Virus genome (UHGV): UHGV-0200089
Origin: a virus
Length of the DNA: 17,850 bases
Reading direction: 5' to 3' (one strand)
The notes beneath the pieces were generated by a model. That model did no database searches. It saw only the letters and a list, made by a program, of their open reading frames with translations, and had not been told where the DNA came from. Made by a program: the position numbers and the translations under genes. Below, in pieces: positions 1 to 15,388 of this stretch (the stretch's first letter is position 1; each line of letters opens with the position of its first letter).

Positions 1-1124
1 TCGCCGCTAAAGTGTCCATCGACACCTCTTCTCTGCAGTATGAGAACGATGACCTGATGCGTCCGGACTTCAACAACGATGACTACGCTATTGCTTGCTG
101 CGTAAGCCCGATGATCGTTGGTAAACAAATGCAGTTCTTCGGTGCGCGTGCAAACCTGGCGAAAACCATGCTGTACGCAATCAACGGCGGCGTTGACGAA
201 AAACTGAAAATGCAGGTTGGTCCGAAGTCTGAACCGATCAAAGGCGATGTCCTGAACTATGATGAAGTGATGGAGCGCATGGATCACTTCATGGACTGGC
301 TGGCTAAACAGTACATCACTGCACTGAACATCATCCACTACATGCACGACAAGTACAGCTACGAAGCCTCTCTGATGGCGCTGCACGACCGTGACGTTAT
401 CCGCACCATGGCGTGTGGTATCGCTGGTCTGTCCGTTGCTGCTGACTCCCTGTCTGCAATCAAATATGCGAAAGTTAAACCGATTCGTGACGAAGACGGT
501 CTGGCTATCGACTTCGAAATCGAAGGCGAATACCCGCAGTTTGGTAACAATGATCCGCGTGTAGATGACTTGGCTGTTGACCTGGTAGAACGTTTCATGA
601 AGAAAATTCAGAAACTGCACACCTACCGTGACGCTATCCCGACTCAGTCTGTTCTGACCATCACTTCTAACGTTGTGTATGGTAAGAAAACGGGTAACAC
701 CCCAGACGGTCGTCGTGCTGGCGCGCCGTTCGGACCGGGTGCTAACCCGATGCACGGTCGTGACCAGAAAGGTGCAGTAGCCTCTCTGACTTCCGTTGCT
801 AAACTGCCGTTTGCTTACGCTAAAGATGGTATCTCCTACACCTTCTCTATCGTTCCGAACGCACTGGGTAAAGACGACGAAGTTCGTAAGACCAACCTGG
901 CTGGTCTGATGGATGGTTACTTCCACCACGAAGCATCCATCGAAGGTGGTCAGCACCTGAACGTTAACGTGATGAACCGTGAAATGCTGCTCGACGCGAT
1001 GGAAAACCCGGAAAAATATCCGCAGCTGACCATCCGTGTATCTGGCTACGCAGTACGTTTCAACTCGCTGACTAAAGAACAGCAGCAGGACGTTATTACT
1101 CGTACCTTCACTCAATCTATGTAA
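1..1124 (+). CDS. pflB: Formate C-acetyltransferase (pyruvate formate-lyase), 5'-partial, C-terminal ~370 aa
   Basis: Open frame runs from the window edge to TAA at 1122-1124. The translation contains the active-site pair 'IACCVSPM' and the glycyl-radical motif 'RVSGYAV' near the C-terminus, and matches E. coli PflB as recalled. A hairpin terminator follows. Confidence 0.96.
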
Positions 1125-1166
1125 TTAGATTTGACTGAAATCGTACAGTAAAAAGCGTACAATAAA

Positions 1167-1192
1167 GGCTCCACGAAAGTGGGGCCTTTTTT
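1167..1192 (+). terminator. Rho-independent terminator downstream of pflB
   Basis: Stem GGCTCCAC / GTGGGGCC (one G-U pair) with GAAA loop, followed by TTTTTT. Confidence 0.7.
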
Positions 1193-1317
1193 AGCGCGAG
1201 AGCCTTTTTTGTCAGCTATCTATACTTTAAGGTGACTGCCAAAACAGACTCGACGTAGCCTTCGAGCTGCGCACCAACACGGCCTCAGATGGGCCACATC
1301 TGGAGAAACACCGCAAT

Positions 1318-1330
1318 GTCAGTTATTGGT
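1318..1330. repeat. attL core, direct repeat GTCAGTTATTGGT
   Basis: Identical 13-mer at 16868-16880. Here it is preceded by the native pflA RBS GGAGA and ATG (1316-1318) and followed by phage-type sequence. Confidence 0.8.
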
Positions 1331-1405
1331 GACATTTTTTGACATCTAATTGCATGAAATAAAAGGATTTATTTCTGGTCACGTCCACACATTGACCACA
1401 TCGAC

Positions 1406-1430
1406 AAAAAAAGCCCCTCAACTGAGGGGC
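1406..1430 (-). terminator. Rho-independent terminator downstream of ogr
   Basis: Stem GCCCCTC / GAGGGGC with a short loop; on the minus strand it is followed by a 7-nt T tract (A7 at 1406-1412 on plus). Confidence 0.65.
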
Positions 1431-1443
1431 TTTCTGTTTGTAA

Positions 1444-1662
1444 TTACATCCACATAATTTGCTGCCCTGACGGCAACGGGTGCGGCCTTACGGCGTGGAC
1501 TTCTCCCGGCTTCACGATGTATCTCTGTACCGACTCATAGGTGATGAACGTGGCGCTGCAATTCACGTTCTGACACTGGTGATAACGCTCTTTTGTCGTG
1601 TCAGTGATATAGCGACTTGTACGCGCATGTGCGGCATGCTGGCATAAAGGACAATGAAACAT
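1444..1662 (-). CDS. ogr: Ogr-type zinc-finger late-gene transcription activator (72 aa)
   Basis: Internal ATG at 1662-1660 gives MFHCPLCQHAAHARTSRYITDTTKERYHQCQNVNCSATF..., with CxxC...CxxxxC zinc-finger spacing, matching P2 Ogr as recalled. The 28-aa N-terminal extension in the ORF track is judged spurious. Confidence 0.88.
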   Translation of the reverse strand: MFHCPLCQHAAHARTSRYITDTTKERYHQCQNVNCSATFITYESVQRYIVKPGEVHAVRPHPLPSGQQIMWM

Positions 1663-1742
1663 CGCGAGCACCTCTTCCGGTTTTGTTGATGGTGCCATTT
1701 TAGTTAATTTATCCTTATAAAACAAACAGATAAAATAAAACA

Positions 1743-2906
1743 TCACTCATCATCTTCTGTTTCGTACTCCACATCAGAAAGCCTGACCTCAAGCTCCAAG
1801 GACGTCGTGAAGCCGCTATTATTCAGAAAATGTGTCACCTTAGTGATTGTCCAGTCCTGCTCGTCTATGACGCGCTTAAAGCCTGACACTTTGACCGGCG
1901 TTTCCGTGTAAATATCTGCCCGACCAGTGGCAAGGCTGATGGAGAACTCCGCAACGCCCCGTTGCAGTTTGTCCCACTTCGCCTGAGCGGCGCGCATGGC
2001 CTGCGCTTTCGTGGCATATACCGTGGTCAGGGCAAAAACGTTGTCAGCCTCACCGGCCATGTATTCACCTTCGCGCGCTTCCGGTACTTTTGGCTCTTTC
2101 TTCTGCGTGACCGGTTTCGCTTTCGGGTGCTCCAGTGCGCGCAGGTGTTTCTCTTTCTTTTTGCGTTTCAGTTTTACCTTCTGCTTTTGCGGCTTCGGGT
2201 CTTTGGTGTGTAACCACTTTGCCGTAACGCCGGTATAGGCTCCACGGTCAGCAATCGCAAAATGATGACGGTCGCCGTCGCTGCGGGTGATGGTGACCTG
2301 CGGGATTTTTTTACCGCTGGCCGTCACCCCCTGCCCCGCTTTGAGAAACAACAGTTTTCCCATTTTTACCGACACCTCACCGCCGTTGCGTTCTGCAAGA
2401 CGGGTCAGGAATTTCGCATCAGACTCCTGCGACTGGTCGATGTGCGGGATTTTAATTCCGGCCAGTGACGGAGCGACACTGGCCTCCAGCCTGTTACGGG
2501 TGGCTATCGCCTCAACAATCGCACCGAGCGTGGTGTCATGCCAGGAGCCTTCCCGGCGGGAATTGAGCGTCCCGCGGAAATCTGCACTCCGGGCGCGGAT
2601 GGTGACCACATCCGGTGCGCCCCGGTGTTCAACCTCATCAACGGTAAATTTCCCTTTGCATACCAGGGCAAAACCTTTCCAGCCGATATACACCGTCAGG
2701 ACAGCGCCACGAATCGGTAGCCCGACCTGCCCGTCGGCGTCGTTCAGTTCAATATCAAGCTGGTCAGCCTCAAAGCCCCGGTTATCCGTCAGGGTCATGC
2801 TCATCAGACGGTCGCTGATATTGCCGGTAATATCCCTGCTGTCGAGCATCAGCATGTAATCCGGCGTCAGCGTACTGCCTGCATCAAATGTCAGTGCATC
2901 CAGCAT
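1743..2906 (-). CDS. D: P2 gpD-like tail protein (387 aa)
   Basis: Full-length ORF with near-identity to P2 D as recalled (MLDALTFDAGSTLTPDYMLMLDSRDITGNISDRLMSMTLTDNRGFEADQLDIELND...). Its ATG overlaps the U stop as TAATG. Confidence 0.92.
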   Translation of the reverse strand: MLDALTFDAGSTLTPDYMLMLDSRDITGNISDRLMSMTLTDNRGFEADQLDIELNDADGQVGLPIRGAVLTVYIGWKGFALVCKGKFTVDEVEHRGAPDVVTIRARSADFRGTLNSRREGSWHDTTLGAIVEAIATRNRLEASVAPSLAGIKIPHIDQSQESDAKFLTRLAERNGGEVSVKMGKLLFLKAGQGVTASGKKIPQVTITRSDGDRHHFAIADRGAYTGVTAKWLHTKDPKPQKQKVKLKRKKKEKHLRALEHPKAKPVTQKKEPKVPEAREGEYMAGEADNVFALTTVYATKAQAMRAAQAKWDKLQRGVAEFSISLATGRADIYTETPVKVSGFKRVIDEQDWTITKVTHFLNNSGFTTSLELEVRLSDVEYETEDDE

Positions 2907-3385
2907 TATCCCGCCCCCGTCATACCCGTGAATCTGGTCGCCATACTGCCAGCCTTACCGATAAGCGATTCCGCCTGTTTACCGATATCGCCATAAAGCG
3001 CGGCCAGTGATTCATCAACGCGGGTGAGTGACAGCGTAAAATCAATTTTTCGGGGTGTGCCGTCTGCAAAGAAAATACTCCCTGTTTCATTCACCCTGCT
3101 GATGACATACATGCCGTAAATCATGCCGGTGCCATCCAGCAACGGCCACGCCCGGCCTTCCTCTGCCATCAGCCTGAGCGTGGTCATCGTCAGCTTGCCG
3201 CCGGTCAGTTCGGGATAAAGCACGCCGGCAAGCGTGATGTTTTCCTCACCCACACCGAGAAACTGAAAGGCATCCCGTTTACCGATACGGGAATTTGACG
3301 GCCAGCGATAATCTGATTCACGCTGCATGGTCTGGTGTGGCAGCGTCTGGCGCATAAAAACAAACATACCTAACGCGAGCATCAT
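2906..3385 (-). CDS. U: P2 gpU-like tail protein (159 aa)
   Basis: ORF beginning MMLALGMFVFMRQ..., lying between the T remnant and D as in P2. AGGAGG RBS (complement of 3394-3399) sits upstream of the ATG. Confidence 0.88.
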   Translation of the reverse strand: MMLALGMFVFMRQTLPHQTMQRESDYRWPSNSRIGKRDAFQFLGVGEENITLAGVLYPELTGGKLTMTTLRLMAEEGRAWPLLDGTGMIYGMYVISRVNETGSIFFADGTPRKIDFTLSLTRVDESLAALYGDIGKQAESLIGKAGSMATRFTGMTGAG

Positions 3386-3399
3386 TTTTCGTCACCTCC

Positions 3400-3681
3400 T
3401 TAACCGTCATGCATCATGCTGGCACGAGCGCGCGCACGTTTATCCCGCTCGTATTTTTCGAGCGCATCCTGTAACTGGCGGTCAAGCTGTGTCCCCGGCG
3501 CAGTACCACCCGTCAGGCTGATGTGATATTCGTTTTTACTCTGGTCCACATAAGAGCGGCCAGCCGGTGCCGTGACCGGCTGATAAGCCTGATAGCCTGC
3601 ATAAGAGCTGGTCGCCGGAATATAACCACCGGTGCCATACGTGGCGGCATGAGTTCTGGCGGCGGTCTGGTCAAGTGTGTC
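3400..3681 (-). pseudogene. T: C-terminal remnant of P2 gpT-like tail tape-measure gene (about 93 codons; upper boundary approximate)
   Basis: The frame ends in TAA at 3402-3400 just upstream of the U RBS, in the position T occupies in P2. The protein-like tail is ...YGTGGYIPATSSYAGYQAYQPVTAPAGRSYVDQSKNEYHISLTGG...EKYERDKRARARASMMHDG. Upstream of ~3690 the same frame reads antisense through the P remnant. Confidence 0.5.
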
Positions 3682-3684
3682 TGA

Positions 3685-3996
3685 CTCTTTGTTGATGACC
3701 CCGAGCTTTTCCAGTACACGCCGGAAATGAAAACCGCAATGGTGCTCAAGGCAAAAGACGTTATTCGCCGTGGCTGTCTGGAATATGACGTCAGCGCCAC
3801 CGACATCACCAGCTCGTTTATGGCTATCCGCAAGACCATGACCAGCAGCGGACGCAGCGCCACCTATGAGGCCAGCCGCAGCGAGGAAGCCAGCCACGCC
3901 GACCTCGCCTGGGCGACCATGCACGCTCTGTTAAATGAGCCACTCACCGCCGGTATCAGCACCCCGCTGACATCCACCATTCTGGAGTTTTACTGA
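3685..3996 (+). pseudogene. P: C-terminal remnant of P2 gpP-like terminase large subunit (5' boundary approximate)
   Basis: The frame opens after TGA at 3682-3684 and ends in TGA at 3994-3996, overlapping the Q start as TGATG, which is the P-then-Q arrangement of P2. Only ~100 codons remain, against ~590 for a full-length P. Confidence 0.5.
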
Positions 3997-5030
3997 TGAG
4001 CAAGAAAAAAGGGAAAACACCGCAACCTGCGGCAAAAACAATGACCGCCAGCGCCCCGAAAATGGAGGCATTCACCTTTGGTGATCCGGTGCCGGTACTC
4101 GACCGCCGTGACATTCTGGATTATGTCGAGTGCATCAGTAACGGCAGATGGTATGAGCCACCAGTCAGCTTTACCGGTCTGGCAAAAAGCCTGCGTGCTG
4201 CCGTGCATCACAGCTCACCGATTTACGTCAAACGCAATATTCTGGCCTCGACATTTATCCCGCATCCGTGGCTTTCCCAGCAGGATTTCAGCCGCTTTGT
4301 GCTGGATTTTCTGGTGTTCGGTAATGCGTTTCTGGAAAAGCGTTACAGCCCCACCGGTAAGGTCATCAGACTGGAAACCTCACCGGCAAAATATACCCGC
4401 CGTGGCGTGGAGGAGGATGTTTACTGGTGGGTGCCGTCCTTCAACGAGCCGACAGCCTTCGCGCCCGGTTCCGTGTTTCACCTGCTGGAGCCCGATATTA
4501 ATCAGGAGCTGTACGGCCTGCCGGAATATCTCAGCGCCCTTAACTCTGCCTGGCTGAATGAGTCGGCCACGCTGTTCCGCCGCAAGTATTACGAAAACGG
4601 CGCACATGCCGGATACATCATGTACGTTACCGATGCCGTGCAGGATCGCAACGATATCGAAATGCTTCGCGAAAACATGGTTAAGTCGAAAGGCCGCAAT
4701 AACTTTAAAAATCTGTTTCTCTATGCCCCACAGGGGAAAGCCGACGGCATTAAAATTATCCCGCTCAGTGAAGTGGCAACGAAGGACGATTTTTTTAATA
4801 TCAAAAAAGCCAGCGCCGCTGACCTGCTGGACGCGCATCGCATCCCCTTTCAGTTGATGGGGGGCAAGCCGGAGAACGTCGGGTCGCTGGGTGATATTGA
4901 GAAAGTGGCAAAGGTCTTTGTCCGCAATGAGCTTATCCCGTTACAGGACAGGATCCGCGAGATAAACGGCTGGCTCGGTCAGGAGGTCATCCGATTTAAA
5001 AACTACTCACTGGACACTGACAACGGCTGA
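3996..5030 (+). CDS. Q: P2 gpQ-like capsid portal protein (344 aa)
   Basis: Near-identity to P2 Q as recalled (MSKKKGKTPQPAAKTMTAS...AFTFGDPVPVLDRRDILDYVECISNGRWYEPPVSFTGLAKSLRAAVHHSSPIYVKRN...). GGAG RBS at 3984-3987; followed by a terminator and cos. Confidence 0.92.
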   Translation: MSKKKGKTPQPAAKTMTASAPKMEAFTFGDPVPVLDRRDILDYVECISNGRWYEPPVSFTGLAKSLRAAVHHSSPIYVKRNILASTFIPHPWLSQQDFSRFVLDFLVFGNAFLEKRYSPTGKVIRLETSPAKYTRRGVEEDVYWWVPSFNEPTAFAPGSVFHLLEPDINQELYGLPEYLSALNSAWLNESATLFRRKYYENGAHAGYIMYVTDAVQDRNDIEMLRENMVKSKGRNNFKNLFLYAPQGKADGIKIIPLSEVATKDDFFNIKKASAADLLDAHRIPFQLMGGKPENVGSLGDIEKVAKVFVRNELIPLQDRIREINGWLGQEVIRFKNYSLDTDNG

Positions 5031-5033
5031 ACA

Positions 5034-5055
5034 TCGCCGCCTGCGGGCGGCTTTT
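5034..5055 (+). terminator. Rho-independent terminator after Q
   Basis: GCCGCC / GGCGGC 6-bp GC stem with TGCG loop, followed by CTTTTTT. Confidence 0.7.
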
Positions 5056-5199
5056 TTACACCCCGTCATCACCCCCTCACACGCTCACCACCGCACAAAA
5101 CACCCCGCAGACACACCAACGCCTCAACGGGCAGACTAAGCGCCGTCACGACGCGCTCAGACGCTGAAAAAATAAAATCCGCACCACCGCCAGCGCGCA

Positions 5200-5218
5200 G
5201 TGCTTTCCCCGCCTCGCC
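5200..5218. other. cos: P2-type cos site (19-nt cohesive-end sequence)
   Basis: GTGCTTTCCCCGCCTCGCC is the reverse complement of GGCGAGGCGGGGAAAGCAC, the P2 cohesive end as recalled. It lies in a C-rich tract directly after Q, where cos sits in P2. Confidence 0.65.
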
Positions 5219-5459
5219 CGCCCGCTTCATGGGGAGGTTTTAATGCAAACGCATCAGGAAGGGCAGACCTAGTCACATGTAGAATACGATAGCAATAAAA
5301 AAGTCTAATTAGAATGCAAATTGATGCAACTCTATGCCCTCCAAGAACTCCAAACCTGAAAGATTTATGTAAAACATAGTGTTCGTTTCACCAAAATACA
5401 TATAAACTACATTAAAATAGAAATTTGTCTCACCTATAAGCCATTTAGACAACAGATTA

Positions 5460-6623
5460 ATGAGGTTTGTATCACAAATGACCACAAACGAGATACTTTC
5501 GCAGCTTATCAGTCTTGGACTCAAAGGGGATAAAGTTGCTTTTGTTCGGCAGGCTTCGAAACTCGCGCGTTCCTATGATTCTATGGGGCTGCCTGAGCTT
5601 GCTTCAGCCATTAGAGGTAGTATTCAAGATAAAAACACGTTTAACTTGCAGAAAGTATCACGCAGTACATCACCTATTTTTGAACGTCTTGATACATTAC
5701 CTGTAGATAAAGAAACTAAATTTGATTTAGCAGACGTAACTCAACCGTCTTCTGAAATTCAACTCCCATTGTTGAAAGATAGCACTCTGAAAAAAATTAA
5801 AGAATTTTTGACTTTCACTGAACGAGCTAAAGAATTAAAGGATGCCGGTCTTGGCGTGACATCCTCTATGATTTTATATGGGCCACCAGGTTGTGGTAAA
5901 ACCTTGACATCAAAATATATTGCATCCTGTCTAAATTTACCGCTTCTTACTGCAAGATGTGACTCCTTAGTCTCATCATATCTGGGGTCTACTTCTAAAA
6001 ATATCAGGCAGCTATTTGAGTATGCAAGTAAAGCACCATGTGTTTTATTTCTAGATGAACTAGATTCTCTAGCAAAGGCTAGAGATGATCAGCATGAGTT
6101 AGGTGAACTGAAGAGGGTGGTGGTTTCTTTATTGCAAAATATTGACAATCTACCTGAAGAAACAATATTGATTGCTGCAAGTAATCATGAAAATCTTCTA
6201 GATAGCGCAGTTTGGAGGCGCTTTGAGTATAGAATATCTATTGGATTGCCTGATTTTGAAGTCAGAAAACAACTATTTGAACAATATTCAAACATAAAAG
6301 CTACATATGACGATTTTGTTGATGACCTTGCGGAAATATCATCAGGGCTAAACTGCTCATTTATAGAACAATGCTGCTTAAGATCTGAGCGACATGCTCT
6401 GGTTTACAATAATAAACAAATCGATACCCGATTTTTAGTCGAGGCTATCTTAGAAGCGAAGGGAGTTACATTTGATGAAGAAGATAATTTACTTATAAAG
6501 ATTGTGACCACTCTCAGAGAATACAATCCCAAAAGATTTACAATACGAAAGATAGCAAAAATACTAGGGCTTTCAAATGCTAAAGTGTCAAGGCTAACTA
6601 AGAACTATAGAGAGATATTATGA
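5460..6623 (+). CDS. AAA+ ATPase with C-terminal HTH-like segment (387 aa); cargo gene 1 of an IetAS-like pair
   Basis: Walker A 'GPPGCGKT', Walker B 'VLFLDELD', and a sensor/arginine region 'SNHENLLDSAVWRRFEYRISIGLPD'. The C-terminal 'FTIRKIAKILGLSNAKVSRLTKNY' looks like a helix-turn-helix. The stop overlaps the next gene's start as ATGA. Start could instead be ATG 5478, which has a GAGG ~12 nt upstream. Confidence 0.85.
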   Translation: MRFVSQMTTNEILSQLISLGLKGDKVAFVRQASKLARSYDSMGLPELASAIRGSIQDKNTFNLQKVSRSTSPIFERLDTLPVDKETKFDLADVTQPSSEIQLPLLKDSTLKKIKEFLTFTERAKELKDAGLGVTSSMILYGPPGCGKTLTSKYIASCLNLPLLTARCDSLVSSYLGSTSKNIRQLFEYASKAPCVLFLDELDSLAKARDDQHELGELKRVVVSLLQNIDNLPEETILIAASNHENLLDSAVWRRFEYRISIGLPDFEVRKQLFEQYSNIKATYDDFVDDLAEISSGLNCSFIEQCCLRSERHALVYNNKQIDTRFLVEAILEAKGVTFDEEDNLLIKIVTTLREYNPKRFTIRKIAKILGLSNAKVSRLTKNYREIL

Positions 6624-8884
6624 GTAACAAAGAAAGACCAATAAAAATAATTGAGGCGACACCTCAAGATTTTACTGAAAAAACATATAATTTCGGAAAG
6701 AAACAACCTATCCGAACAGTAACAACTAGTCTAAAAAATAGACTCAAACAAGAAGTCGATGACGTTAAAAATTTTTTCCAGAGCTCATTTAAAAAATGGC
6801 CCAATATACCGGCGGTGGCTAGAGTTACTCTTCATGAAAAAGCTCTTGCTAAGTCACATCGCCCATCAAGCCTATTAGGTGATAATACATGTCCCGTAAT
6901 AGGCAGTGATAATTTTGGAGAATTACTTATAAGTGTTACTGAAAAAGGGTTAGCACAACTTCGCAAAAAAATTGAAAATAGCACTAATTCTCATAATGGG
7001 ACAGTACATATTGCTGTAATTGAAAAGATCGAACCTTTTAGTCTTAACCATGATGTTATAGATAAAAATAAATCAGATAGTTTTCTTCTGAAACTCTTTG
7101 ACCATAAAGATAGAACAACTAACCGCAGTATCGACAAAGAATTAATGGAATTTGCAGATGAACTAGGAATACAAAAACCCAAAAAGTATGATATCAGTTC
7201 AGATTTGAGTATATATGAAGTAAAAGGGAATGATAACATCGCCCAACTGGCAAGTTTTATTGGCATACGAAAATTAGAACCTATGCCAACATTTGGTCTT
7301 ACTCATACAGTATCGCAATATATTCCTGCTGAAACTCTAGACCTAGATGATTTTCCCTTACCTCAAGAGGATAAACATTATCCACTACTCGGAATTATAG
7401 ATAGCGGAGTCGATCCCAATAACAACATACTTAGGCCATGGATTTGGGATAGTTTAGATTTAGTAAAAGGAGAACACGACTATTCTCATGGGAACATGGT
7501 TGCAAGTTTAGCAATTAATGGAAGATGGTTGAATAACTATGCTGGTTTTCCTCAATGCCAAGCTGAAATTGTTGATGTTGCAGCCTTTCCCAAAGATGGT
7601 ACGCTCAAATTGCCACAATTAATGAAAGCTATCCGAGAGGCTGTGACCACCTATCCAGAAGTACGTGTATGGAATCTGTCATTAGGTTGTCAATCCCCAT
7701 GTTCTGAAGACAGCTTCTCTGAATTGGGGCATTTTTTAAATGCACTTCATGATGAGCATGATTGTCTTTTCGTCGTAGCATCCGGCAACTACATTTATGA
7801 TCCTCAACGAACCTGGCCTCCTCAAGAATTAGGTGGGCATGACAGAATATCAGCCCCCGCAGATTCTGTTCGTTCATTAACTGTTGGCTCAGTTGCCCAT
7901 TTAGAATCGTCTGACTCTGTGGTCAAAAGATTTGAACCTTCATCTTTTTCTAGAAGAGGTCCCGGCCCAGCCTTTATACCCAAACCAGAGATAAATCACT
8001 TTGGAGGTAATTGTGACAGTAAATTAAACTGTGAACATACCGGAATCATAGCTATTGGCGAGGACAATGCTCTTTGCGAAAGTATTGGCACAAGTTTATC
8101 AGCACCGTTAATCTCAAGTTTAGCGGCATCACTGTGGCATGAACTAGATGTTAATGGTTCTATTTCACCATCGCCTGAACGTATCAAGGCACTATTAATT
8201 CATTCTGCGTTAAAAAACTCACCAGCCAAAACGGAGCATTATGCGTTTAATTATCAAGGATTTGGACGCCCAAGCGATCATATAAATGATATTATTGGTT
8301 GCAATAAAAATGAGATTACATTTCTATTTGAAATAGATACCCGAGAAGGTATTGAATTCAGTAGAACGCCATTTGTAATACCACAGTCATTACGTACTGA
8401 GGATGGAAAATTCACAGGTGAAATTATTATGACACTCGTTTATTCTCCACCGCTTGATTATGACTACCCATCTGAATATTGCCGTTCTAATGTGGATGTG
8501 TCATTCGGGACTTACACTTATGATCCAGTTAACGCTAAATGGATACATAGCGGAAAAATTCCACAAATAAAAGAAAAGAGTGAATTATTTGAAAAGGTAC
8601 TGATAGAAAATGGCTTCAAATGGTCTCCAGTCAAAGTTTATAGAAAACAATTTCCGCAAGGTATAAATGGGGAGCAATGGAGACTTAAACTTGATGTTCA
8701 GAGACGAGCAGAGCAAGAGCCTCTATCTTCACCTCAACGTGCTGTATTGGCTATTACGTTAAGATCTCTTGCCAATTCTACTACAGTCTACAACGAAGCC
8801 GAGGTTGAAATAAATAATCTTGGTTGGAAAGAAACTGATATTGTTGTTCGTGAACAACCAAAAATCAGGATTCGTCAAAAATAA
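6620..8884 (+). CDS. Subtilisin-like (S8) serine peptidase with N- and C-terminal extra domains (754 aa); cargo gene 2
   Basis: S8 catalytic motifs in canonical order: Asp 'LLGIIDSGVD', His 'DYSHGNMVASLA', oxyanion Asn 'FVVASGNY', Ser 'GTSLSAPLISS'. AT-rich coding sequence; translationally coupled to the ATPase. Confidence 0.85.
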   Translation: MSNKERPIKIIEATPQDFTEKTYNFGKKQPIRTVTTSLKNRLKQEVDDVKNFFQSSFKKWPNIPAVARVTLHEKALAKSHRPSSLLGDNTCPVIGSDNFGELLISVTEKGLAQLRKKIENSTNSHNGTVHIAVIEKIEPFSLNHDVIDKNKSDSFLLKLFDHKDRTTNRSIDKELMEFADELGIQKPKKYDISSDLSIYEVKGNDNIAQLASFIGIRKLEPMPTFGLTHTVSQYIPAETLDLDDFPLPQEDKHYPLLGIIDSGVDPNNNILRPWIWDSLDLVKGEHDYSHGNMVASLAINGRWLNNYAGFPQCQAEIVDVAAFPKDGTLKLPQLMKAIREAVTTYPEVRVWNLSLGCQSPCSEDSFSELGHFLNALHDEHDCLFVVASGNYIYDPQRTWPPQELGGHDRISAPADSVRSLTVGSVAHLESSDSVVKRFEPSSFSRRGPGPAFIPKPEINHFGGNCDSKLNCEHTGIIAIGEDNALCESIGTSLSAPLISSLAASLWHELDVNGSISPSPERIKALLIHSALKNSPAKTEHYAFNYQGFGRPSDHINDIIGCNKNEITFLFEIDTREGIEFSRTPFVIPQSLRTEDGKFTGEIIMTLVYSPPLDYDYPSEYCRSNVDVSFGTYTYDPVNAKWIHSGKIPQIKEKSELFEKVLIENGFKWSPVKVYRKQFPQGINGEQWRLKLDVQRRAEQEPLSSPQRAVLAITLRSLANSTTVYNEAEVEINNLGWKETDIVVREQPKIRIRQK

Positions 8885-8889
8885 GCATT

Positions 8890-8914
8890 ATGGTCACCTT
8901 TTATAGGTGACCAT
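8890..8914. terminator. Perfect 9-bp palindromic hairpin between the two convergent cargo operons
   Basis: ATGGTCACC ttttata GGTGACCAT, located between the S8 stop (8884) and the membrane-protein stop (8918). U-tracts are weak on both sides, so termination efficiency is uncertain. Confidence 0.5.
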
Positions 8915-8917
8915 TTA

Positions 8918-9679
8918 CTACACCTTATTATTTTCAACTATTTTATGAATATCCATATCAAACCAAGAAACTTGCGAAATTTCTTTTAGTGGAAAGATGA
9001 TACTAGTATCAGCATCCTCAAGCTCTCTATATTCATTCACCAAGATTACTTTCAATGAATCCTTATCTCTATACCCAGAGATAATAGGATAGATTGAAAC
9101 ATACTGGTTAGGTCCTTCTTTCTCGTTAGGCTCACCTAATGCGTTAACAATTCCTACATATGTCTTTTTATTTTGCAACGTAATAAGTATTGAACGTCTA
9201 TCAACTAACGAATCAAAAAATATTTCATCCATTGGATTATCATTAATAAGCTCTTGCCTCATCCTTAGCATGACAAGATTCTCATAATCAATATTGGCAG
9301 CCTTTACCCCTTGGATATAATTTATAATTTTAGCTCTATATATAACCAAATATCTAGCACCGACACTCCATATCCAAGCCAAAAATATCGTTCCACATGA
9401 AAGTAAAATCATCCATCCTATGATTCTTTCAGTACCATTGTCACTAAGTTTGAGATCTAATTGTTCCCGAACCATCGTGACAGGATGGAAGCTCGGACAT
9501 ATCCATTTTATTAAGTAAGCTATAATCAATGTCCATATAAAACACCACAGACCAAAGGCGGCTGACTTCATATATAACAACTGCCCATCATAACGGTGTA
9601 ATCTATAGAAATGATAAGGATGAGTGGTTAATACAATATAACCACTCACAAGTAATGGAATAATTAATAAAGCAAACAT
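8918..9679 (-). CDS. Uncharacterised membrane protein (253 aa), three predicted N-terminal TM helices plus a ~140-aa soluble C-terminal domain; cargo gene
   Basis: Hydrophobic segments FALLIIPLLVSGYIVLTT, AAFGLWCFIWTLIIAYLIKWI and IIGWMILLSCGTIFLAWIWSV. The ATG lies 2 nt after the upstream gene's TAA. AT-rich. No family recognised. Confidence 0.7.
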   Translation of the reverse strand: MFALLIIPLLVSGYIVLTTHPYHFYRLHRYDGQLLYMKSAAFGLWCFIWTLIIAYLIKWICPSFHPVTMVREQLDLKLSDNGTERIIGWMILLSCGTIFLAWIWSVGARYLVIYRAKIINYIQGVKAANIDYENLVMLRMRQELINDNPMDEIFFDSLVDRRSILITLQNKKTYVGIVNALGEPNEKEGPNQYVSIYPIISGYRDKDSLKVILVNEYRELEDADTSIIFPLKEISQVSWFDMDIHKIVENNKV

Positions 9680-9681
9680 TA

Positions 9682-9918
9682 TTAATTCCCTTTAGCCATT
9701 TTTTCTTCTTGCTTTACCTGCTCAGAAACTATTTTTCTTGCTTTAATTTTCATCAATTTTACTGTATCTGAGCTTGCCAAGTCTTCTTTAGACGTGATAA
9801 TCGCGCCTCGACCTACCACCTCAACAGTGTTTGTTCCAGATGCTTCAAGCCTCCTCGCCAGTTCTCTTTCCTTTTCAATAGCAGCTTTACCTATAATACG
9901 TTCAAATATATTCATCAT
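9682..9918 (-). CDS. Uncharacterised small charged protein (78 aa), first gene of the minus-strand cargo operon
   Basis: GGAGG RBS 4 nt upstream of the ATG (complement of 9916-9918). Lys/Glu-rich, predicted helical. Tightly coupled to the downstream membrane-protein gene. Confidence 0.6.
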   Translation of the reverse strand: MMNIFERIIGKAAIEKERELARRLEASGTNTVEVVGRGAIITSKEDLASSDTVKLMKIKARKIVSEQVKQEEKMAKGN

Positions 9919-10009
9919 TTAACCTCCACTTGATTGATGCCAAGATAGTAATCACCTCCTCACAATATCTTACCAACCTAACAACTAACAGAACACTGTG
10001 TATAAGTCC

Positions 10010-10037
10010 AGTATAGTTTAATTAATAAATTAGGCAA
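10010..10037 (-). promoter_or_regulatory. Candidate sigma70 promoter for the minus-strand cargo operon
   Basis: On the minus strand: TTGCCT, 16-nt spacer, TATACT, about 90 nt upstream of the 9918 start. Sequence-only prediction. Confidence 0.3.
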
Positions 10038-10226
10038 ATCTATCAAAATGGTATTTTGTTAAAAATTCAGCTAACTCTGAGGTTGGTAAAACAGTCCACC
10101 AGATGTATCGCTAAAGCACTTAGAAACCACTATAACCATCCTAAGTGTACCAGTCAGTCTGTTTGTCTAATCGCATCACTATGCTCGTTATTCTATCCCC
10201 CGCCAATCCTGAGCTGGCTGCGTTCT

Positions 10227-10433
10227 CTATCGTCTGCGTGGTGGCGGTGCAGCGCTGGGCTGACCGATATAGTTAAGCCATACGTAATTATCCCGGACTA
10301 TTTCGGCACACCCGACCAGCTCATCGGGCGTCAGATTTTCGTTGACCATAATCTGCTGTAGACGGTGAACAATGGCCATCAGCTTGATATTTTTAGTTTT
10401 ATGCTGCGGTATCTCGCCTGGTATTCTGTGCAT
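10227..10433 (-). CDS. Hypothetical small protein (68 aa) downstream of the ASCH-like gene
   Basis: ATG at 10433-10431 overlaps the upstream TAA as TAATG; the translation ...ENLTPDELVGCAEIVRDNYVWLNYIGQ... looks protein-like. It competes with an overlapping plus-strand ORF at 10056-10361. Confidence 0.3.
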   Translation of the reverse strand: MHRIPGEIPQHKTKNIKLMAIVHRLQQIMVNENLTPDELVGCAEIVRDNYVWLNYIGQPSAAPPPRRR

Positions 10434-10888
10434 TATCCAAGCCACCCGTTTTGCTGTGCACGCTCCACCTGTTCATCTGAATAGTTCCATATCCCATCCG
10501 CACCAACCACTGCCCCGCCAGACATCCCCGTCTCTGGTTCATACACAACAGCAAGGCCGAGCTGATGCATAATTTCATGATTAATTCTGAATACCAGACC
10601 ACGCTCACTAAGTTCTTTCCAGTTCACAAACTCATATGCGCCTGTATTAAGCAGCTCAATACTTAGCAAGACATAATCTTCCAGCCAGTCTGACAAGTCA
10701 GTAACATCTGTTATCCGGGCTTCAACCTTTCGCCCCGTATACACACCCTGCACCCATTCATGCAAAATCAACGTGTCCCCGCGCTCATAATTACGGTCAT
10801 TTTTCCGAAACTCTGCGCGTTTCTTTCCTTCCAGCACAAGGTCAAAATATTTTGCGTGCAGCTTTACCTCGTGAATTTTTGCCATCAT
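10433..10888 (-). CDS. ASCH/PUA-like domain protein (151 aa) in the P2 'orf91' position
   Basis: From the first ATG (10888-10886), which overlaps the gene A stop as ATGA: MMAKIHEVKLHAKYFDLVLEGKKRAEFRKNDRNYERGDTLILHEW... resembles the ASCH/DUF3850 fold signature. The C-terminal region contains 'INHEIMHQLG' (an HExxH). The track's longer GTG-initiated version is rejected. Confidence 0.72.
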   Translation of the reverse strand: MMAKIHEVKLHAKYFDLVLEGKKRAEFRKNDRNYERGDTLILHEWVQGVYTGRKVEARITDVTDLSDWLEDYVLLSIELLNTGAYEFVNWKELSERGLVFRINHEIMHQLGLAVVYEPETGMSGGAVVGADGIWNYSDEQVERAQQNGWLG

Positions 10889-13170
10889 TTCCACTCCATT
10901 ACTGTTGAGAATCCCGGCCACTCATCAGCGACCGGATACGTGAATTTTTTCCCGTCATAATTTACGGTCGCGCCACGCGCCAGCGCCTCAAGCTCCCATC
11001 GCTGCGGCCTGATACCGTTCTGAGCAAGGTCAACGCGGATACGGGTAATTTGCATTCTTTCCGACCGGGTCAGTCTGGCCGATGGTGCAATTTCATGTGG
11101 TTTTAACGGGCTTCCGTTTCTTTGCTGACGGTTTGGCGTTCTCAGGTCGTGTTTTAATGCACCCCTGAGCGCCCTCACGACCTCCGGTTCATTCCATTCA
11201 ATAACACCGTCATCAACCAGATTAAGCACTGCTGCGGCGTGCTCAGAAGGTGTGGGAGCCGGTAACGAAGTATCACCACCGGTGAGCTTTCCACAGTTAT
11301 TGACAGGACTCCGAGGCGCGGCGATGCCGCTTTTTAAAGTCAAAGGCTCAACGACCGGAACTTTCGGCACAATGCGCCAGTCCGTCGTTCTGGTGATATG
11401 AATATGACGCGCGCCGAGATGCGGCGCGTAAATGCCGACCACTCTCTCGACTTCTTCCTCGTATTCGTTAACGTCATCCGACGGGCTACGGGCGACCCTG
11501 ACAGTCTGACAATCGCGCGGGACATTTGCCCCGCCCTGCGCGCTGATATACAACGCAAAATCGCCACTGTCTGCGGCGGCGCGTGCAGCCTCCACGCGTT
11601 CGTCAAATTCATCAGCAATGCTGACGCCGCGAGGCAATTTACGTAGCTCACGGTAAGCTCCCATTGTCGGCAGGCCAACCGTTTTAAATTGCGGGATGCG
11701 CCACGTTGACGCCCATGCGGTAACAGCCGCCGCAGTATCTTTCAGCGGTCTGCCGGTATCGTTATCGAGCTGACCATCCAGTGCATAGCCGTCGATATTT
11801 TTTGAAATGTATTTCGCGATATATCCCGCAGCACCGCCCCGGTTAAGGTGTTTTGCCTGAAAACGGTTTCGCGCGGCTCCTCTTTCGTCGCCATCCTCTT
11901 TGAGCGCATAGCGGCGCATGATTTCGATAATCTGGTTACGCTGGCGTGGATTACAAAAAAGCATCATATGCCAGTGCGGCGTTCCGTCGTGGTGTGGCTC
12001 GACGACTCGCAAACCGTAGACCTGTAAATCATTATCCTTGAATGCCGTGCGCATCAGGCTCCAGATACGGCAGAGATAACGCTGCGCATCCTTTGGATTA
12101 AATGCCTCATCATTCCAGCCGTGATTAAGCTGGACGGTTTTATTTTCGCCTTTTCCAACCTGACGTGTCGGGTGATACTTTGACGGCGCGGTCAGCGTGA
12201 TAAACATCCCCACATCACCCTCTGAGGCGGCGTAACGCTCAATACCGGCAATGGTGTTCATCAGCTCCATCCGGCGAATTTCAGGATTAGAAATACTGCC
12301 CATCACCTTACTGATAAGGTCGATGCGCTCGCCGGTTTCCCTGTTTTCAAGGTCACACGATTTAAGAAATTCCAGATTTGCCTGGCGGCGCGCACGCACA
12401 TCACGAATGGCATGTTTACTGGCATAAGGTGAACGGTCTTTATTGACCTCCCCGACAGCTATCAGTAACGCCTCATGCCAGCGCATACGCTGGCCTTTAA
12501 GCTGATGAGTCCACCACTCATCGTTAAACAGACGGGCAATGGCAGAATATGCCTGCCTCGTGGTCATCTGCCCTTTACGGTATTTGTTCCAGTAGAGAGG
12601 GGAAATATTGAAAGCACGTGCAGCGCCAGCAACATGACCATAGAGGTGAGCCTGCGCCTCATCCGTAAACAGCGATTCTTTTTCGCCATGTGCATCCACC
12701 CAGGCATCGCTGAGTTCCTCATACATCATGAAAAGCTGCGATGAGATACGGGCAGCAAACTTTTTCAGCTCCTTGTCATTCATTCCCGGCAGGCGCGCAT
12801 AGTGGTCACGCTCTGCCAGAAACAGTAACGACGCGTCGGTGTTCATTTCATGGCGCTGATTCACACGCTCAATGCGCGGCCATAAACGACGCTGAAAAGT
12901 GGATGTGAGGAAATAAAACCCGTGCACCGGGCTTTTATTGCGCCGGATGTAGTCATAGCGTGAAGTAAACAGCGAGCGCAAAAAGTAAGGCAGGCGGTTA
13001 ATCGTGGATAAAACACCTTGCACCTGACGCATCTCGTCACGTGTAAGAGGTCTTTCGCGCCCGACAGCCTCGCGTGGCGCGTTCCATGCATAAGCACCGG
13101 TAAACGCCTTACCGGTGCCTGCGGCAAATGCTGACGGAGGGACAAAACGCCCGGAGGCTTTAACGGCCAT
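10885..13170 (-). CDS. A: P2 gpA-like rolling-circle replication initiation endonuclease (761 aa)
   Basis: From ATG 13170-13168 the protein begins MAVKASGRFVPPSAFAAGTGK... and carries the tyrosine motif 'YIAKYISKNIDGY'. Length and sequence match P2 A as recalled. The track's start at 13212 is a TTG extension. Confidence 0.92.
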   Translation of the reverse strand: MAVKASGRFVPPSAFAAGTGKAFTGAYAWNAPREAVGRERPLTRDEMRQVQGVLSTINRLPYFLRSLFTSRYDYIRRNKSPVHGFYFLTSTFQRRLWPRIERVNQRHEMNTDASLLFLAERDHYARLPGMNDKELKKFAARISSQLFMMYEELSDAWVDAHGEKESLFTDEAQAHLYGHVAGAARAFNISPLYWNKYRKGQMTTRQAYSAIARLFNDEWWTHQLKGQRMRWHEALLIAVGEVNKDRSPYASKHAIRDVRARRQANLEFLKSCDLENRETGERIDLISKVMGSISNPEIRRMELMNTIAGIERYAASEGDVGMFITLTAPSKYHPTRQVGKGENKTVQLNHGWNDEAFNPKDAQRYLCRIWSLMRTAFKDNDLQVYGLRVVEPHHDGTPHWHMMLFCNPRQRNQIIEIMRRYALKEDGDERGAARNRFQAKHLNRGGAAGYIAKYISKNIDGYALDGQLDNDTGRPLKDTAAAVTAWASTWRIPQFKTVGLPTMGAYRELRKLPRGVSIADEFDERVEAARAAADSGDFALYISAQGGANVPRDCQTVRVARSPSDDVNEYEEEVERVVGIYAPHLGARHIHITRTTDWRIVPKVPVVEPLTLKSGIAAPRSPVNNCGKLTGGDTSLPAPTPSEHAAAVLNLVDDGVIEWNEPEVVRALRGALKHDLRTPNRQQRNGSPLKPHEIAPSARLTRSERMQITRIRVDLAQNGIRPQRWELEALARGATVNYDGKKFTYPVADEWPGFSTVMEWK

Positions 13171-13435
13171 ATGAGCCAAAAGCCTCAGAACAACGCTTGC
13201 TGAGTTGCTCAACCTGCGCGTTTAAATCAGCAAAAGACTTTGCGCTTCCGGTCAGAATATCGTGATGCATCAGGCCGGAAACGAGCTGGCTTAATTTCGG
13301 GTAATAACCAACCACCGCCAGCCATTCCTGACCGGCGTTTTTACCGCTTTCCGCTCTCTTTTTCTCGTGGAGAATAAACTGAAAGCTGTCACTGGTAACG
13401 ACATAACGTTCGCCAATTTCGATACGAATACTCAT
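13160..13435 (-). CDS. Small early-operon protein (91 aa), P2 orf83 position
   Basis: ATG overlaps the upstream stop as ATGA; ends 8 nt before the gene A start. Assigned by synteny with P2. Confidence 0.7.
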   Translation of the reverse strand: MSIRIEIGERYVVTSDSFQFILHEKKRAESGKNAGQEWLAVVGYYPKLSQLVSGLMHHDILTGSAKSFADLNAQVEQLSKRCSEAFGSYGR

Positions 13436-13656
13436 GCCATTCTCCGGTAATGCTTGTTTTTTGCTTCAAAGACTGACTGGCAGGAAACACAACGCGTGGC
13501 TGACGGATAAGCTGCACGACGGGCAGCAGGTATTGGCGCGTCACACTCTTCGCAAACCAGCGCAGAAACACCGCAATGTTTTACCCTTGCCGCGTTAATC
13601 TGGCGCTCCAGTAATTCAGCCTGTTGTTCCTGAATAAAATCTATGTTGTCCGGCAT
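13432..13656 (-). CDS. TraR/DksA-type C4 zinc-finger protein (74 aa), P2 orf82 position
   Basis: 'CEECDAPIPAARRAAYPSATRCVSCQ' gives CxxC-(17)-CxxC spacing typical of the TraR/DksA zinc finger. TAATG coupling to the upstream gene. Confidence 0.75.
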   Translation of the reverse strand: MPDNIDFIQEQQAELLERQINAARVKHCGVSALVCEECDAPIPAARRAAYPSATRCVSCQSVFEAKNKHYRRMA

Positions 13657-13958
13657 TACCAGCTCCTTTTGTCGTTCAGCTTCTTAAATTCATCAGCGCA
13701 ATAGCTGGCGATTTCTGTCGTTAATTTTGTCAGTTCATCCACGGATGAAATTTGCTTATGAAATACAGCGCGTTTAACAAGTAAATTGACCACATCAGAC
13801 AGGAGGTTTAATTCATTCTGATAAATCGCGATAACAGATTCAGTTATGTCGCGTTTTTCTTTATCAAGACAAAGTTGAATAAGAGACAAATCGCCATTTT
13901 TCATAACGGCGATTTTTAAGGCGTTATTCAGTAATACAACTGAATGAGAACAGGACAT
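13656..13958 (-). CDS. Small early-operon protein (100 aa), P2 orf81 position
   Basis: ATG at 13958-13956 overlaps the upstream stop as TGATG. The track's TTG start at 13961 is one codon longer. Confidence 0.65.
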   Translation of the reverse strand: MSCSHSVVLLNNALKIAVMKNGDLSLIQLCLDKEKRDITESVIAIYQNELNLLSDVVNLLVKRAVFHKQISSVDELTKLTTEIASYCADEFKKLNDKRSW

Positions 13959-14182
13959 CAAAGCACCTCCCCGCGAGACAATCCGATATTGTGAAATTTT
14001 TCCGACTCCTGACTGAGCAGCTCGACTATCTCCACGCGGGATAACTCCGCCTTTGTGATATGGCGAATCATGGCGTCAAGATGAGAAGAAAAGCGCGTCG
14101 CAGCGTCGGCCTGTGCTTCGGTTCTGGCCTGTTGCAGCAGTAATGCGTATTTACCGCACTGATTTTCAGAAACTGTATGCAT
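13958..14182 (-). CDS. Small early-operon protein (74 aa), P2 orf80 position
   Basis: ATG at 14182-14180 with GGAG upstream; position between B and the orf81-like gene matches P2 synteny. Confidence 0.65.
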
Positions 14183-14245
14183 GACTTTCTCCAGGCAAAA
14201 AGAAGCCCCGCACGATTAAGTGCGTTAAAAACTCTGGTTAATTAC

Positions 14246-14746
14246 TTAATGCAGATATTGCTCTGGTTTTACCGACGTCAGAATTGTCGGTGCATACTCA
14301 AACAGGCTGAATAATTCACGTAATGCACGGAATAAAGCATCACGCCAGTAACATGACTCTTCATTAATTCGCCAGTATGGCTGGTTGAATTCTTTTTCAG
14401 TCAATCCGGCATGCATAAATAAAGTACGACGCTGACTGACTGTTAAAAAACTAATATATGCATACTCACTTGCGCCAACCTGACGGCGTTTTGAGAATGC
14501 CCCACGCAATTCATCAATTGCACAAACCAGCCGTTCACGTTCGACGTCGTTCATTTCTTCAAAACGCATCGTTGCGTGACGCTGTTTTAACTGCGCATGA
14601 AAGCAAACCGTTAACCGTTCGCGCTCCATCATCTGATTATAATAATCACATGTATCCTGCCAGCGAGGGACGGCCAGATGCTTACCAATTATCCGGCGCA
14701 TAGTTGCTGGCTGTTTTTCGACGAGATTGAGCGTCATCACTGTCAT
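14246..14746 (-). CDS. B: P2 gpB-like replication protein (166 aa; helicase-loader function as described for P2 B)
   Basis: MTVMTLNLVEKQPATMRRIIGKHLAVPRWQDTCDYYNQMMERERLTVCFHAQLKQRH... is near-identical to P2 B as recalled. Confidence 0.9.
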   Translation of the reverse strand: MTVMTLNLVEKQPATMRRIIGKHLAVPRWQDTCDYYNQMMERERLTVCFHAQLKQRHATMRFEEMNDVERERLVCAIDELRGAFSKRRQVGASEYAYISFLTVSQRRTLFMHAGLTEKEFNQPYWRINEESCYWRDALFRALRELFSLFEYAPTILTSVKPEQYLH

Positions 14747-14913
14747 TTCCAGAACCTCCGGCTTTTCAGAAAGGTCAGAGCCTTTTTTAACGGACTCTGT
14801 TTTTTGGTGCGGATAATGATTCCCTTGCGACCCTTCCCGTGGGTGATGGTGAAGTCAATCGCCCTGGGGCTTTCGTTACGCAATAACTGAGCAATACAAC
14901 GAGGCTCGTTCAT
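14743..14913 (-). CDS. Small basic protein between cox and B (P2 orf78 position); start uncertain
   Basis: The frame ends in TGA overlapping the B ATG as ATGA. The preferred start is ATG 14913-14911, which follows the cox stop and has a GGTGG RBS 5 nt upstream. In-frame ATGs at 14940, 14979 and 15000 would overlap cox. Confidence 0.5.
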   Translation of the reverse strand: MNEPRCIAQLLRNESPRAIDFTITHGKGRKGIIIRTKKQSPLKKALTFLKSRRFWK

Positions 14914-14923
14914 CCTTTCCACC

Positions 14924-15295
14924 TTAAGCCGCACGGCCATGTCTTGATTTGCTGTAACTAATGCGATTTTTCCAGTCATGCCATTCTGTCGGAGCTTCAT
15001 CAACCAGTTGGGCTGCGTACTTGTCCCACTCACGGCGATTAATCCATAATTCAGCTTTCCCTCTTGGTTTTAATGGGTCTGTCATGTAGAAGGCTGGCAG
15101 CTTTCCTGCTTTAGCCATTTCAGCCACCGCGCGTGGTGTCTTACCGATGTAAAGAGCAAAACCTTCTTTCGACAGCAAATCAGATGGGCGCTCTGAAATC
15201 TGAATGCTTTTACGTTTGGCTTCATTTTCGAAACTTGCCTCATCGCTAGTTGGACAAGAAATTTCTACATTTGTCGTCACTTTGCTATCCTCCAT
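14924..15295 (-). CDS. cox: Cox-like protein (123 aa) of the P2-type lysogeny switch
   Basis: Divergent from C and first gene of the cox-B-A early operon. The central HTH-like segment 'FALYIGKTPRAVAEMAKAGKLPAFYMTDP' is Cox/AlpA-like. The sequence differs clearly from P2 Cox as recalled. Confidence 0.65.
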   Translation of the reverse strand: MEDSKVTTNVEISCPTSDEASFENEAKRKSIQISERPSDLLSKEGFALYIGKTPRAVAEMAKAGKLPAFYMTDPLKPRGKAELWINRREWDKYAAQLVDEAPTEWHDWKNRISYSKSRHGRAA

Positions 15296-15388
15296 AAGAT
15301 TTGCGATTCACCAACTGGAGCCATCTAGAGCCTTTTTGAGTGAATCACAAATTGCCAAGTAGCAATATAATTGGAGATTAGCAAAATT
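15296..15388. promoter_or_regulatory. Immunity switch region between divergent cox and C (expected to hold the early and repressor promoters and operators)
   Basis: 93-bp AT-rich spacer between divergent starts. Contains the inverted repeat GATTCAC (15303-15309) / GTGAATC (15336-15342) and a TATAAT at 15366-15371. The assignment is by analogy with P2. Confidence 0.45.

Follow-up and report, generated by a model that had tools for sequence, protein, structure and literature searches.

We analysed the viral genome UHGV-0200089 over its whole stretch of 17,850 nucleotides (nt; hereafter the window) and identify with high confidence its positions 5248-10262 as the cargo of the cos-proximal defence hotspot found between gpA and gpQ in P2-like prophages. 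This cargo comprises an IetAS module and a second module of two open reading frames (ORFs), ORF78 and ORF253, and is exchanged as a cassette. The island is a catalogued instance of the published P2 gpA-gpQ defence hotspot and is in that respect already known. What is new is that the ORF78/ORF253 pair is a conserved two-gene module across Proteobacteria, usually without IetAS, that the IetAS subtype of the window was always found beside this pair, in P2-like and in lambdoid prophages, and that the prophage carrying the island is a deletion remnant.

An AT-rich cassette in the gpA-gpQ hotspot

The edges of the cargo were mapped against four independent P2-like backbones, namely phage vB_EcoM-12474III, two E. 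coli remnants and a Scandinavium prophage. Homology to all four ends exactly at 5247, and in vB_EcoM-12474III it restarts at 10263; these breakpoints define the cargo as 5248-10262, starting 29 nt beyond cos. On the other backbones homology restarts only at about 10907-10921, the small gene orf72 and the DUF3850/ASCH gene also being replaced there. Both of these genes are kept in vB_EcoM-12474III and replaced in the remnants of NCTC9100 (L003) and O157:H16 98-3133 (L004), neither of which has orf72. Since the two genes are only semi-conserved, the hotspot has no fixed right edge. The limits of 5230 and 10226 given in the original prediction lie about 20-35 nt from the true junctions.

The same segment stands out in base composition. 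In 500-nt windows the GC (guanine plus cytosine) content is 0.52-0.57 across 3500-5250, drops to 0.32-0.39 over 5251-7500 and 8001-10000, with a local bump of 0.43 at 7500-8250 within ietS, and climbs back to 0.48-0.58 past 10250. Pooled on the junctions 5247/5248 and 10262/10263, it is 0.531 for 1-5247, 0.368 for 5248-10262 and 0.477 for 10263-17850. GC content at third codon positions is 0.25-0.31 in the four cargo genes versus 0.55-0.64 in D, U, Q and A, and relative synonymous codon usage correlates at about -0.2 between the cargo and backbone or host genes and at +0.81 between the two cargo operons. The original prediction, made from the letters alone, had described an abrupt shift in composition over roughly 5230-10100 with altered codon usage, and both features were recovered when computed. 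Its picture of GC-rich flanks holds for the left flank, Q, cos and A and less well for the right flank, where B and int have a GC content of 0.44-0.45; the cargo accordingly stands out most against Q, cos and A.

The surrounding backbone is that of a P2-like (Peduovirus) prophage. The Q protein of the window is 96-99% identical in amino acid (aa) sequence to Q of P2-like phages, the flanks additionally contain the tail genes D and U as well as B, cox, C and int, and the order A, DUF3850 (Orf91), cargo, cos, Q matches A, Orf91, tin, old, cosR in P2 (NC_001895), in which Orf91 occupies the position equivalent to the DUF3850/ASCH gene and cosR is annotated at the place equivalent to the cos sequence of the window. 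Among 5,426 complete E. coli genomes the flanks were matched in 2,154 and the cargo in only 12. At equivalent junctions we found at least eight other kinds of cargo: tin-old in P2, a cytolethal distending toxin, ParaMORC3 with Dcm, VbhT, a DUF4209 protein, ParB-N with a methyltransferase, an ABC-three-component system and a single hypothetical protein of 537 aa. Nowhere across E. coli were these four genes seen at a chromosomal locus that is conserved and non-mobile, nor was the backbone seen to vary together with the cargo. The locus has the location, the conserved flanks with variable cargo and the recognised anti-phage genes of the P2-like gpA-gpQ hotspot. Alignment within the P2 family gives the result expected from the earlier claim that this is swappable cargo in the variable region between cos and the replication genes.

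This hotspot has been described in detail. Rousset et al. (2022, Cell Host Microbe; PMC9122126) recorded 1,650 arrangements in 18,150 gpA-gpQ loci and showed that several of the cargoes protect against phages, and Moura de Sousa et al. (2026, Nucleic Acids Research; PMC13586616) confirmed gpA-gpQ as the main P2 hotspot for defence, with a cargo that swaps very rapidly, has homologues in prophages other than P2 and is exchanged with them. The arrangement of the window is present in identical form in Table S5A of Rousset et al. (WP_000210436, WP_000066157, WP_000457800, WP_021570510, WP_000554775, WP_032144906). Their Table S5B (PMC9122126) lists ietAS as system #7, with 400 occurrences. It also contains ORF253 and ORF78, with exactly the sequences of the window, as system #57 (75 occurrences), with the remark '2 TM in protein 1' (TM, transmembrane) and no function. 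A literature search by the RefSeq accessions of the four cargo proteins found no paper.

The sharp step in GC content, overall and at third codon positions, at the junctions might be taken as the mark of a recent import from a low-GC donor organism. This origin is very improbable, as the alternative cargoes measured at the site are all equally AT-rich (GC 0.33-0.38, whereas their backbones have 0.50-0.53; in P2, tin has 0.33 and old has 0.35), and as diverged copies of the window cargo (55-60% aa identity) in other enterobacterial genera are still AT-rich (0.374 in L021 and 0.381 in L018). Moreover, homologues come overwhelmingly from Enterobacterales and other Proteobacteria, and no near-identical cargo genes were found in a low-GC genome such as that of a Firmicute. 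As AT-richness is common to all the cargoes and to the diverged copies, it is better understood as a stable trait of a long-lived mobile gene pool. The horizontal acquisition claimed earlier thus stands in the sense of swappable mobile cargo, with the meaning of its AT-richness refined accordingly.

No terminal direct or inverted repeats were found at the cargo edges, on which ground site-specific insertion or transposition of the cargo was rejected. The absence of such repeats suggests that the cassette would most probably be exchanged by homologous recombination through the conserved flanks. A scan of the whole window with Rfam returned no family at its gathering score. The features of the window are collected in Table 1.

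Table 1. Coordinates of the features of the window, with the evidence for each
Feature	Coordinates	Strand	Evidence
pflB, C-terminus	12-1124
gpQ, portal gene, left backbone anchor	3996..5030	+	Pfam Phage_portal; RefSeq 'phage portal protein'
Terminator-like hairpin after Q, GCCGCCTGCGGGCGGC then TTTTTT	5036..5051	+	Terminator scan
P2 cos cohesive-end sequence GGCGAGGCGGGGAAAGCAC	5200..5218	-	Exact 19-nt match, chance expectation 0
Variable AT-rich cargo segment, GC 0.368	5248..10262	.	Homology breakpoints and composition
AT-rich leader, presumed ietAS promoter region	5248..5459	+	Position only
ietA, AAA+ ATPase with C-terminal helix-turn-helix	5460..6623 (RefSeq start 5478)	+	PADLOC IetA E=9e-132, full length; Pfam AAA E=1e-31
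ietS, S8 subtilisin-like serine protease	6620..8884	+	PADLOC IetS E=1e-273, residues 1-747 of 749; Pfam Peptidase_S8
Perfect 9-bp stem-loop at convergent junction	8890..8914	.	Fold and position kept in diverged copies
ORF253 (WP_000457800), three N-terminal TM helices, helical linker, C-terminal Sm/Hfq-like beta-barrel	8918..9679	-
ORF78 (WP_021570510), small soluble partner with conserved VVGRG motif	9682..9918	-	phrog_37504, no assigned function
AT-rich leader, presumed promoter region of the ORF78-ORF253 operon	9919..10226	-	Sigma-70-like sites
orf72 (WP_000554775), semi-conserved small gene, right edge	10227..10445	-	phrog_11386, no assigned function
DUF3850/ASCH gene (P2 Orf91 equivalent), backbone accessory	10433..10921	-	Pfam DUF3850, ASCH, DUF7415
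gpA, replication endonuclease, right backbone anchor	10885..13212 (RefSeq start 13170)	-	Pfam Phage_GPA E=3e-123; RefSeq annotation
int	15782-16777
pflA, annotated 265-aa ORF	16809-17606

A divergent IetAS system

The cargo consists of two convergent operons, as had been proposed without gene names. Judged by its sequence, the first is an IetA/IetS (Gao_Iet) system that is divergent and full-length and has its catalytic motifs intact. IetA retains Walker A (GPPGCGKT, residue 141) and Walker B (LFLDELD, 196), and IetS retains the D (GIIDSGV, 258), H (SHGNMVA, 289), N (ASGN, 387) and S (GTSLSAP, 490) motifs. The two genes are co-oriented and form one operon, the start of ietS overlapping the stop of ietA by ATGA. 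The best NCBIfam matches by far are IteA and IteS, both full-length, with 387 and 782 bits against equivalog cut-offs of 510 and 900 bits, and this combination points to a divergent IetAS subtype rather than to a non-member. In the presumed promoter region a sigma-70 scan of 5248-5459 gave no site above thresholds. A 20-nt inverted repeat within ietS (6786-6805 and 7723-7742, 95% complementary, arms 917 nt apart) probably reflects chance within AT-rich coding sequence.

In characterised systems IetS is the toxin and IetA the antitoxin, defence needs the protease activity and the anti-phage mechanism 'remains unknown' (PMC13069673); a toxin-antitoxin origin of IetAS is cited also in PMC5006074. 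The protease-dependent anti-phage activity of the family goes back to Gao et al. 2020, as related by citing sources including PMC13069673. By analogy with these systems, the S8 protease IetS of the window would be a toxic effector restrained by the AAA+ ATPase IetA, and phage infection would release it from this restraint.

The ORF78/ORF253 pair

The second operon, which the original prediction likewise left unnamed, is an uncharacterised two-gene module, in which ORF78 (78 aa) sits 2 nt upstream of ORF253 (253 aa). Both proteins fall in PHROGs families without assigned function and neither has a match in Pfam, PADLOC or NCBIfam. The C-terminal domain of ORF253 forms a five-stranded bent beta-barrel that superposes on Sm proteins. 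This domain has no Pfam LSM, Hfq or WYL match at E<=0.01, its profile matched none of the PDB sequences, and a fold search against BFVD found no significant match over the full length. Only the Sm-like domain of ORF253 (about residues 145-250) is matched in loci of Acidobacteria, Bryobacteraceae and Flavobacterium (L064, L070, L072, L073, L074), which suggests that ORF253-type barrels occur in other protein architectures too. For ORF78, a 22-sequence profile run against all PDB sequences had as its sole match 26 residues of PH0536 (E=0.004). An AbrB/SpoVT-like swapped hairpin, considered on account of the VVGRG..I pattern, was rejected as unsupported.

We surveyed the pair in 57 species-representative loci as well as in 52 viral contigs. 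The family extends to Pseudomonas, Lautropia, Brachymonas, Novosphingobium, Asticcacaulis, Legionella and Turneriella. Almost all full-length ORF253 homologues have, -4 to +24 nt upstream, a homologous small ORF of about 60-95 aa with the motif VVGRG(T/A)(I/V)..DP. In 54 of the 57 loci and in most of the viral contigs the pair occurs without IetAS. Lambdoid prophages of E. coli and Klebsiella carry it alone at their integrase end, and it is the sole detected cargo in the gpA-gpQ hotspot of the P2-like elements L089, L090, L101, L102, L105, L110, L111 and L127. As the small partner is near-universal and the pair usually alone, ORF78/ORF253 is an autonomous mobile module, a prophage 'moron' distributed across Proteobacteria.

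In the window the operon is preceded by sigma-70-like sites on the minus strand at 10037-10010, 9943-9914 and 10157-10129, in a region whose overall count of such sites is not above chance. An imperfect 24-nt inverted repeat upstream of ORF78 (9970-9993 and 10066-10089, 75% complementary, 72 nt apart) may represent an operator or have arisen by chance.

Because of its genomic positions and its architecture, the pair might be a membrane-acting exclusion or abortive-infection module, a role to which we attach low confidence. At the inner membrane, ORF253 would form oligomers by way of its Sm-like domain, and ORF78, from a translationally coupled operon, would act as its regulator or partner. Extending this, we tentatively propose that system #57 may be an autonomous anti-phage or superinfection-exclusion system widespread in Proteobacteria prophages, in which a membrane-anchored Sm-like ring (three TM helices and a Hfq/WYL-type barrel) detects a ligand of phage origin, perturbs the membrane and is regulated by the VVGRG protein. 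In the clade represented by the window the pair may cooperate with its dedicated IetAS subtype.

It is unlikely, though worth weighing, that the pair serves instead in lysogenic conversion or housekeeping, for instance in envelope modification, as a stress-responsive channel or in lysis/lysogeny control, rather than in immunity. Such a role would fit the lack of resemblance to any known defence protein and the presence of non-defence cargo in P2 hotspots. It would also fit the place of the pair between int and att in lambdoid prophages, a position also occupied by conversion genes, O-antigen-modifying ones among them. However, the pair recurs in the defence hotspots of several P2-like lineages and beside IetAS, its combination of a small soluble protein with a multi-TM protein bearing a ligand-binding-type barrel recalls the two-component modules of exclusion or abortive infection, and the ORF253 barrel itself resembles the WYL sensor domains of defence regulators.

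Linkage of the IetAS subtype with the pair

Both operons are present together at 99% identity or more in 12 E. coli genomes and at about 68-71% nucleotide identity in three more. The four-gene block also occurs in P2-like prophages of Enterobacter bugandensis, Citrobacter youngae and Scandinavium, in Salmonella and Citrobacter loci and in seven IMG/VR contigs. In every copy of the IetAS subtype found, the pair is adjacent and convergent, and all four proteins have diverged in step, down to 55-60% aa identity. A diverged block of this kind (55-60% aa identity), with the convergent layout and a hairpin of its own, was detected in E. coli NRZ103545 (NZ_OZ501623.1; L075, 4619-9116) in a setting that is not P2-like, namely a Rac-like lambdoid prophage, where it lies between the replication genes ydaU/ydaV and the Hok/nin region. 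This indicates that the block of about 4.6 kb moves as a unit between phage families. For the Salmonella and Citrobacter loci L010-13, an alternative description as a P4-like/AlpA island unrelated to P2 was rejected when tblastn revealed gpA fragments beside the pair, and these loci are probably P2-hotspot remnants.

The operons are separated by the perfect 9-bp hairpin foreseen by the original prediction, which we recovered at exactly the coordinates proposed. Its arms, ATGGTCACC (8890-8898) and GGTGACCAT (8906-8914), enclose the loop TTTTATA and fold with -16.6 kcal/mol on the plus strand and -18.1 kcal/mol on the minus strand (z = -5.5 and -4.4); in 200 shuffles no fold as stable was obtained. 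When the window was compared with seven diverged copies of the block, a stem-loop was present at the equivalent junction in all eight versions, with varying loops and with stems of the family GGTCACC(TG) in the clade of at least 85% identity and (A)AGAGGCC in the clade of 55-60%. That the position is kept while the sequence turns over supports a structural role. A terminator scan flags the hairpin on the minus strand only, where it is followed by the tail AATGCTTATT. It is probably a bidirectional terminator or a 3'-end stabiliser and would as such end both transcripts, although the U-tract evident only on the minus strand makes bidirectional termination an extension from one side to the other.

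The constant association raises the question whether the four genes form one composite system, with the pair as an accessory (sensor, effector or substrate) of the IetAS subtype, comparable to the helicase of ietHAS. The adjacency and invariably convergent layout in every copy found, the similar divergence of all four proteins, the retention of the layout in the unrelated Rac-like prophage and the similar codon usage of the two operons (r=0.81) are all compatible with this, and IetAS is known to recruit extra essential components (PMC13069673). We nevertheless regard a composite system as improbable. The operons are convergent, with a hairpin between them, and are not co-transcribed; the pair family mostly lacks IetAS, in most viral contigs too, P2 hotspots included; Arsenophonus loci have a 59-69% identical pair beside gpA fragments without IetAS; and the common P2-hotspot variant of IetAS lacks such a pair. 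Furthermore, the sample of the subtype is small and partly clonal, and Rousset et al. curate ietAS and the pair as separate systems. Given the wide independence of the pair and the probable separate termination of the two operons, we favour the view that two systems are transferred together as a mini-island over functional coupling.

Several points weigh against reading the whole island as a defence cassette in this manner. About a quarter of P2 hotspots hold non-defence cargo, such as partition systems and toxins (PMC9122126), and position alone is therefore no proof of defence. The NCBIfam scores of operon 1 lie below the cut-offs, no experiment on this IetAS subtype was found, and its anti-phage activity is extrapolated from its characterised relatives. 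The pair matches none of the PADLOC 2023 (2.0) defence models and is not among the systems experimentally evaluated by Rousset et al. (Table S2), appearing only in their catalogue (S5B, #57). The AlphaFold2 model of ORF78 is of low confidence (predicted local distance difference test score of 55) and not usable, and on the plus strand, which carries ietAS, the tail TTACTACACC of the hairpin has no U-tract.

The host prophage is a deletion remnant

The prophage is integrated between pflB and pflA. The stop codon of int lies 31 nt before the start of the pflA ORF, and the prophage end abuts or overlaps the 5' region of pflA. The 3' end of the tape-measure gene T (3400-3717) is fused to the last approximately 280 nt of the terminase gene P (3715-3996), the T'/P' junction lying at 3715-3717 with a TAC microhomology, and nearly all virion genes, from T to P, have thereby been removed. 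This junction was not found in any complete E. coli genome of the collection. The pflB-pflA remnants of NCTC9100 (L003 4846-4966) and O157:H16 98-3133 (L004 3840-3960) have a P' endpoint identical to that of the window (TACACGCCGG...), with different left endpoints and different hotspot cargo. In NCTC9100, a coding sequence of 1,782 nt (L003 10216-11997) annotated as 'Cox family DNA-binding protein' matches gpA over 516 aa and appears to be a gpA'-cox fusion from a second deletion in that remnant. The loci L079, L081 and L082 (IMG/VR UViG_2541047936_000006 and UViG_2778261676_000006) combine the window cargo with a truncated gpA and an integrase close by, which suggests a further deletion variant of the prophage.

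The persistence of the intact cargo in a prophage that, without T to P, cannot make virions could be explained if the cargo served mainly for addiction or stabilisation, IetAS being a toxin-antitoxin pair that penalises loss of the element and is hence retained in the remnant. Yamamoto et al. (2009) reportedly described ietAS originally as a toxin-antitoxin pair of pTiC58. In keeping with such a role, IetAS was first described as a plasmid-stabilising pair in which the protease is the toxin and the ATPase the antitoxin, and SGI1 is stabilised by a homologue (PMC5006074, PMC13069673). We consider addiction as the main role rather unlikely, since intact prophages carry this cargo too, the cargoes tested from this defence hotspot give protection from phages, and the IetAS family has a validated, protease-requiring anti-phage activity (Gao et al. 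2020, as reported in citing sources). The two roles are in any case not exclusive.

Significance and relationship to known systems

As a locus, the island adds little beyond confirming what had been predicted. The main lead is the conserved pair, with its membrane-anchored Sm-like protein, which recurs in defence and moron sites of prophages from E. coli to Legionella. The IetAS subtype was always found beside this pair, in two phage families unrelated to each other, which may offer a way into the IetAS mechanism, and the intact cargo in a prophage without virion genes indicates that defence cassettes can outlive their vehicles.

The locus is like the gpA-gpQ hotspot of P2, with its prototype cargo tin-old, in position, sharp junctions and AT-richness. 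The first operon is transcribed from the cos side toward A in both, the old-tin mRNA of P2 likewise beginning beside cos and running toward A. In comparison with the published surveys of gpA-gpQ there is no difference at the level of the locus; the prophage of the window is a remnant without T to P, a state that is little emphasised there.

Operon 1 shares with IetAS/Gao_Iet a gene order in which an AAA+ ATPase gene precedes and overlaps one for an S8 protease, as well as PADLOC matches over the full length and an intact Walker motif set and catalytic triad. It differs in sequence from the ietAS common in P2 hotspots (system #7), and it has the convergent ORF78/ORF253 pair in every copy found. 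The case of ietHAS (Liu-DS4; PMC13069673) shows that IetAS cores can gain an extra essential antitoxin-like component. The extra gene of ietHAS, however, encodes a SNF2 helicase in the same operon, whereas the neighbours in the window are a small protein and a membrane protein in a separate convergent operon, which also exists alone.

The ORF78/ORF253 pair is reminiscent of lambda RexAB, Rst_2TM_1TM_TIR and Hydrolase-3TM, which are likewise prophage-borne pairs of a soluble and a multi-TM protein in moron or hotspot positions. This likeness to RexAB and to TM-containing hotspot systems is architectural only, no relationship in sequence or fold having been detected. ORF78 is much smaller than RexA, and a Sm-like cytoplasmic domain such as that of ORF253 is not reported for any of the three. 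Compared with Sm/LSm/Hfq and WYL domains, the barrel of ORF253 is fused to three TM helices and has no membership at the sequence level, and its conserved motifs KVYVG, EPNE, SGYRDKD and SWF correspond neither to the Sm1/Sm2 nor to the WYL signatures.

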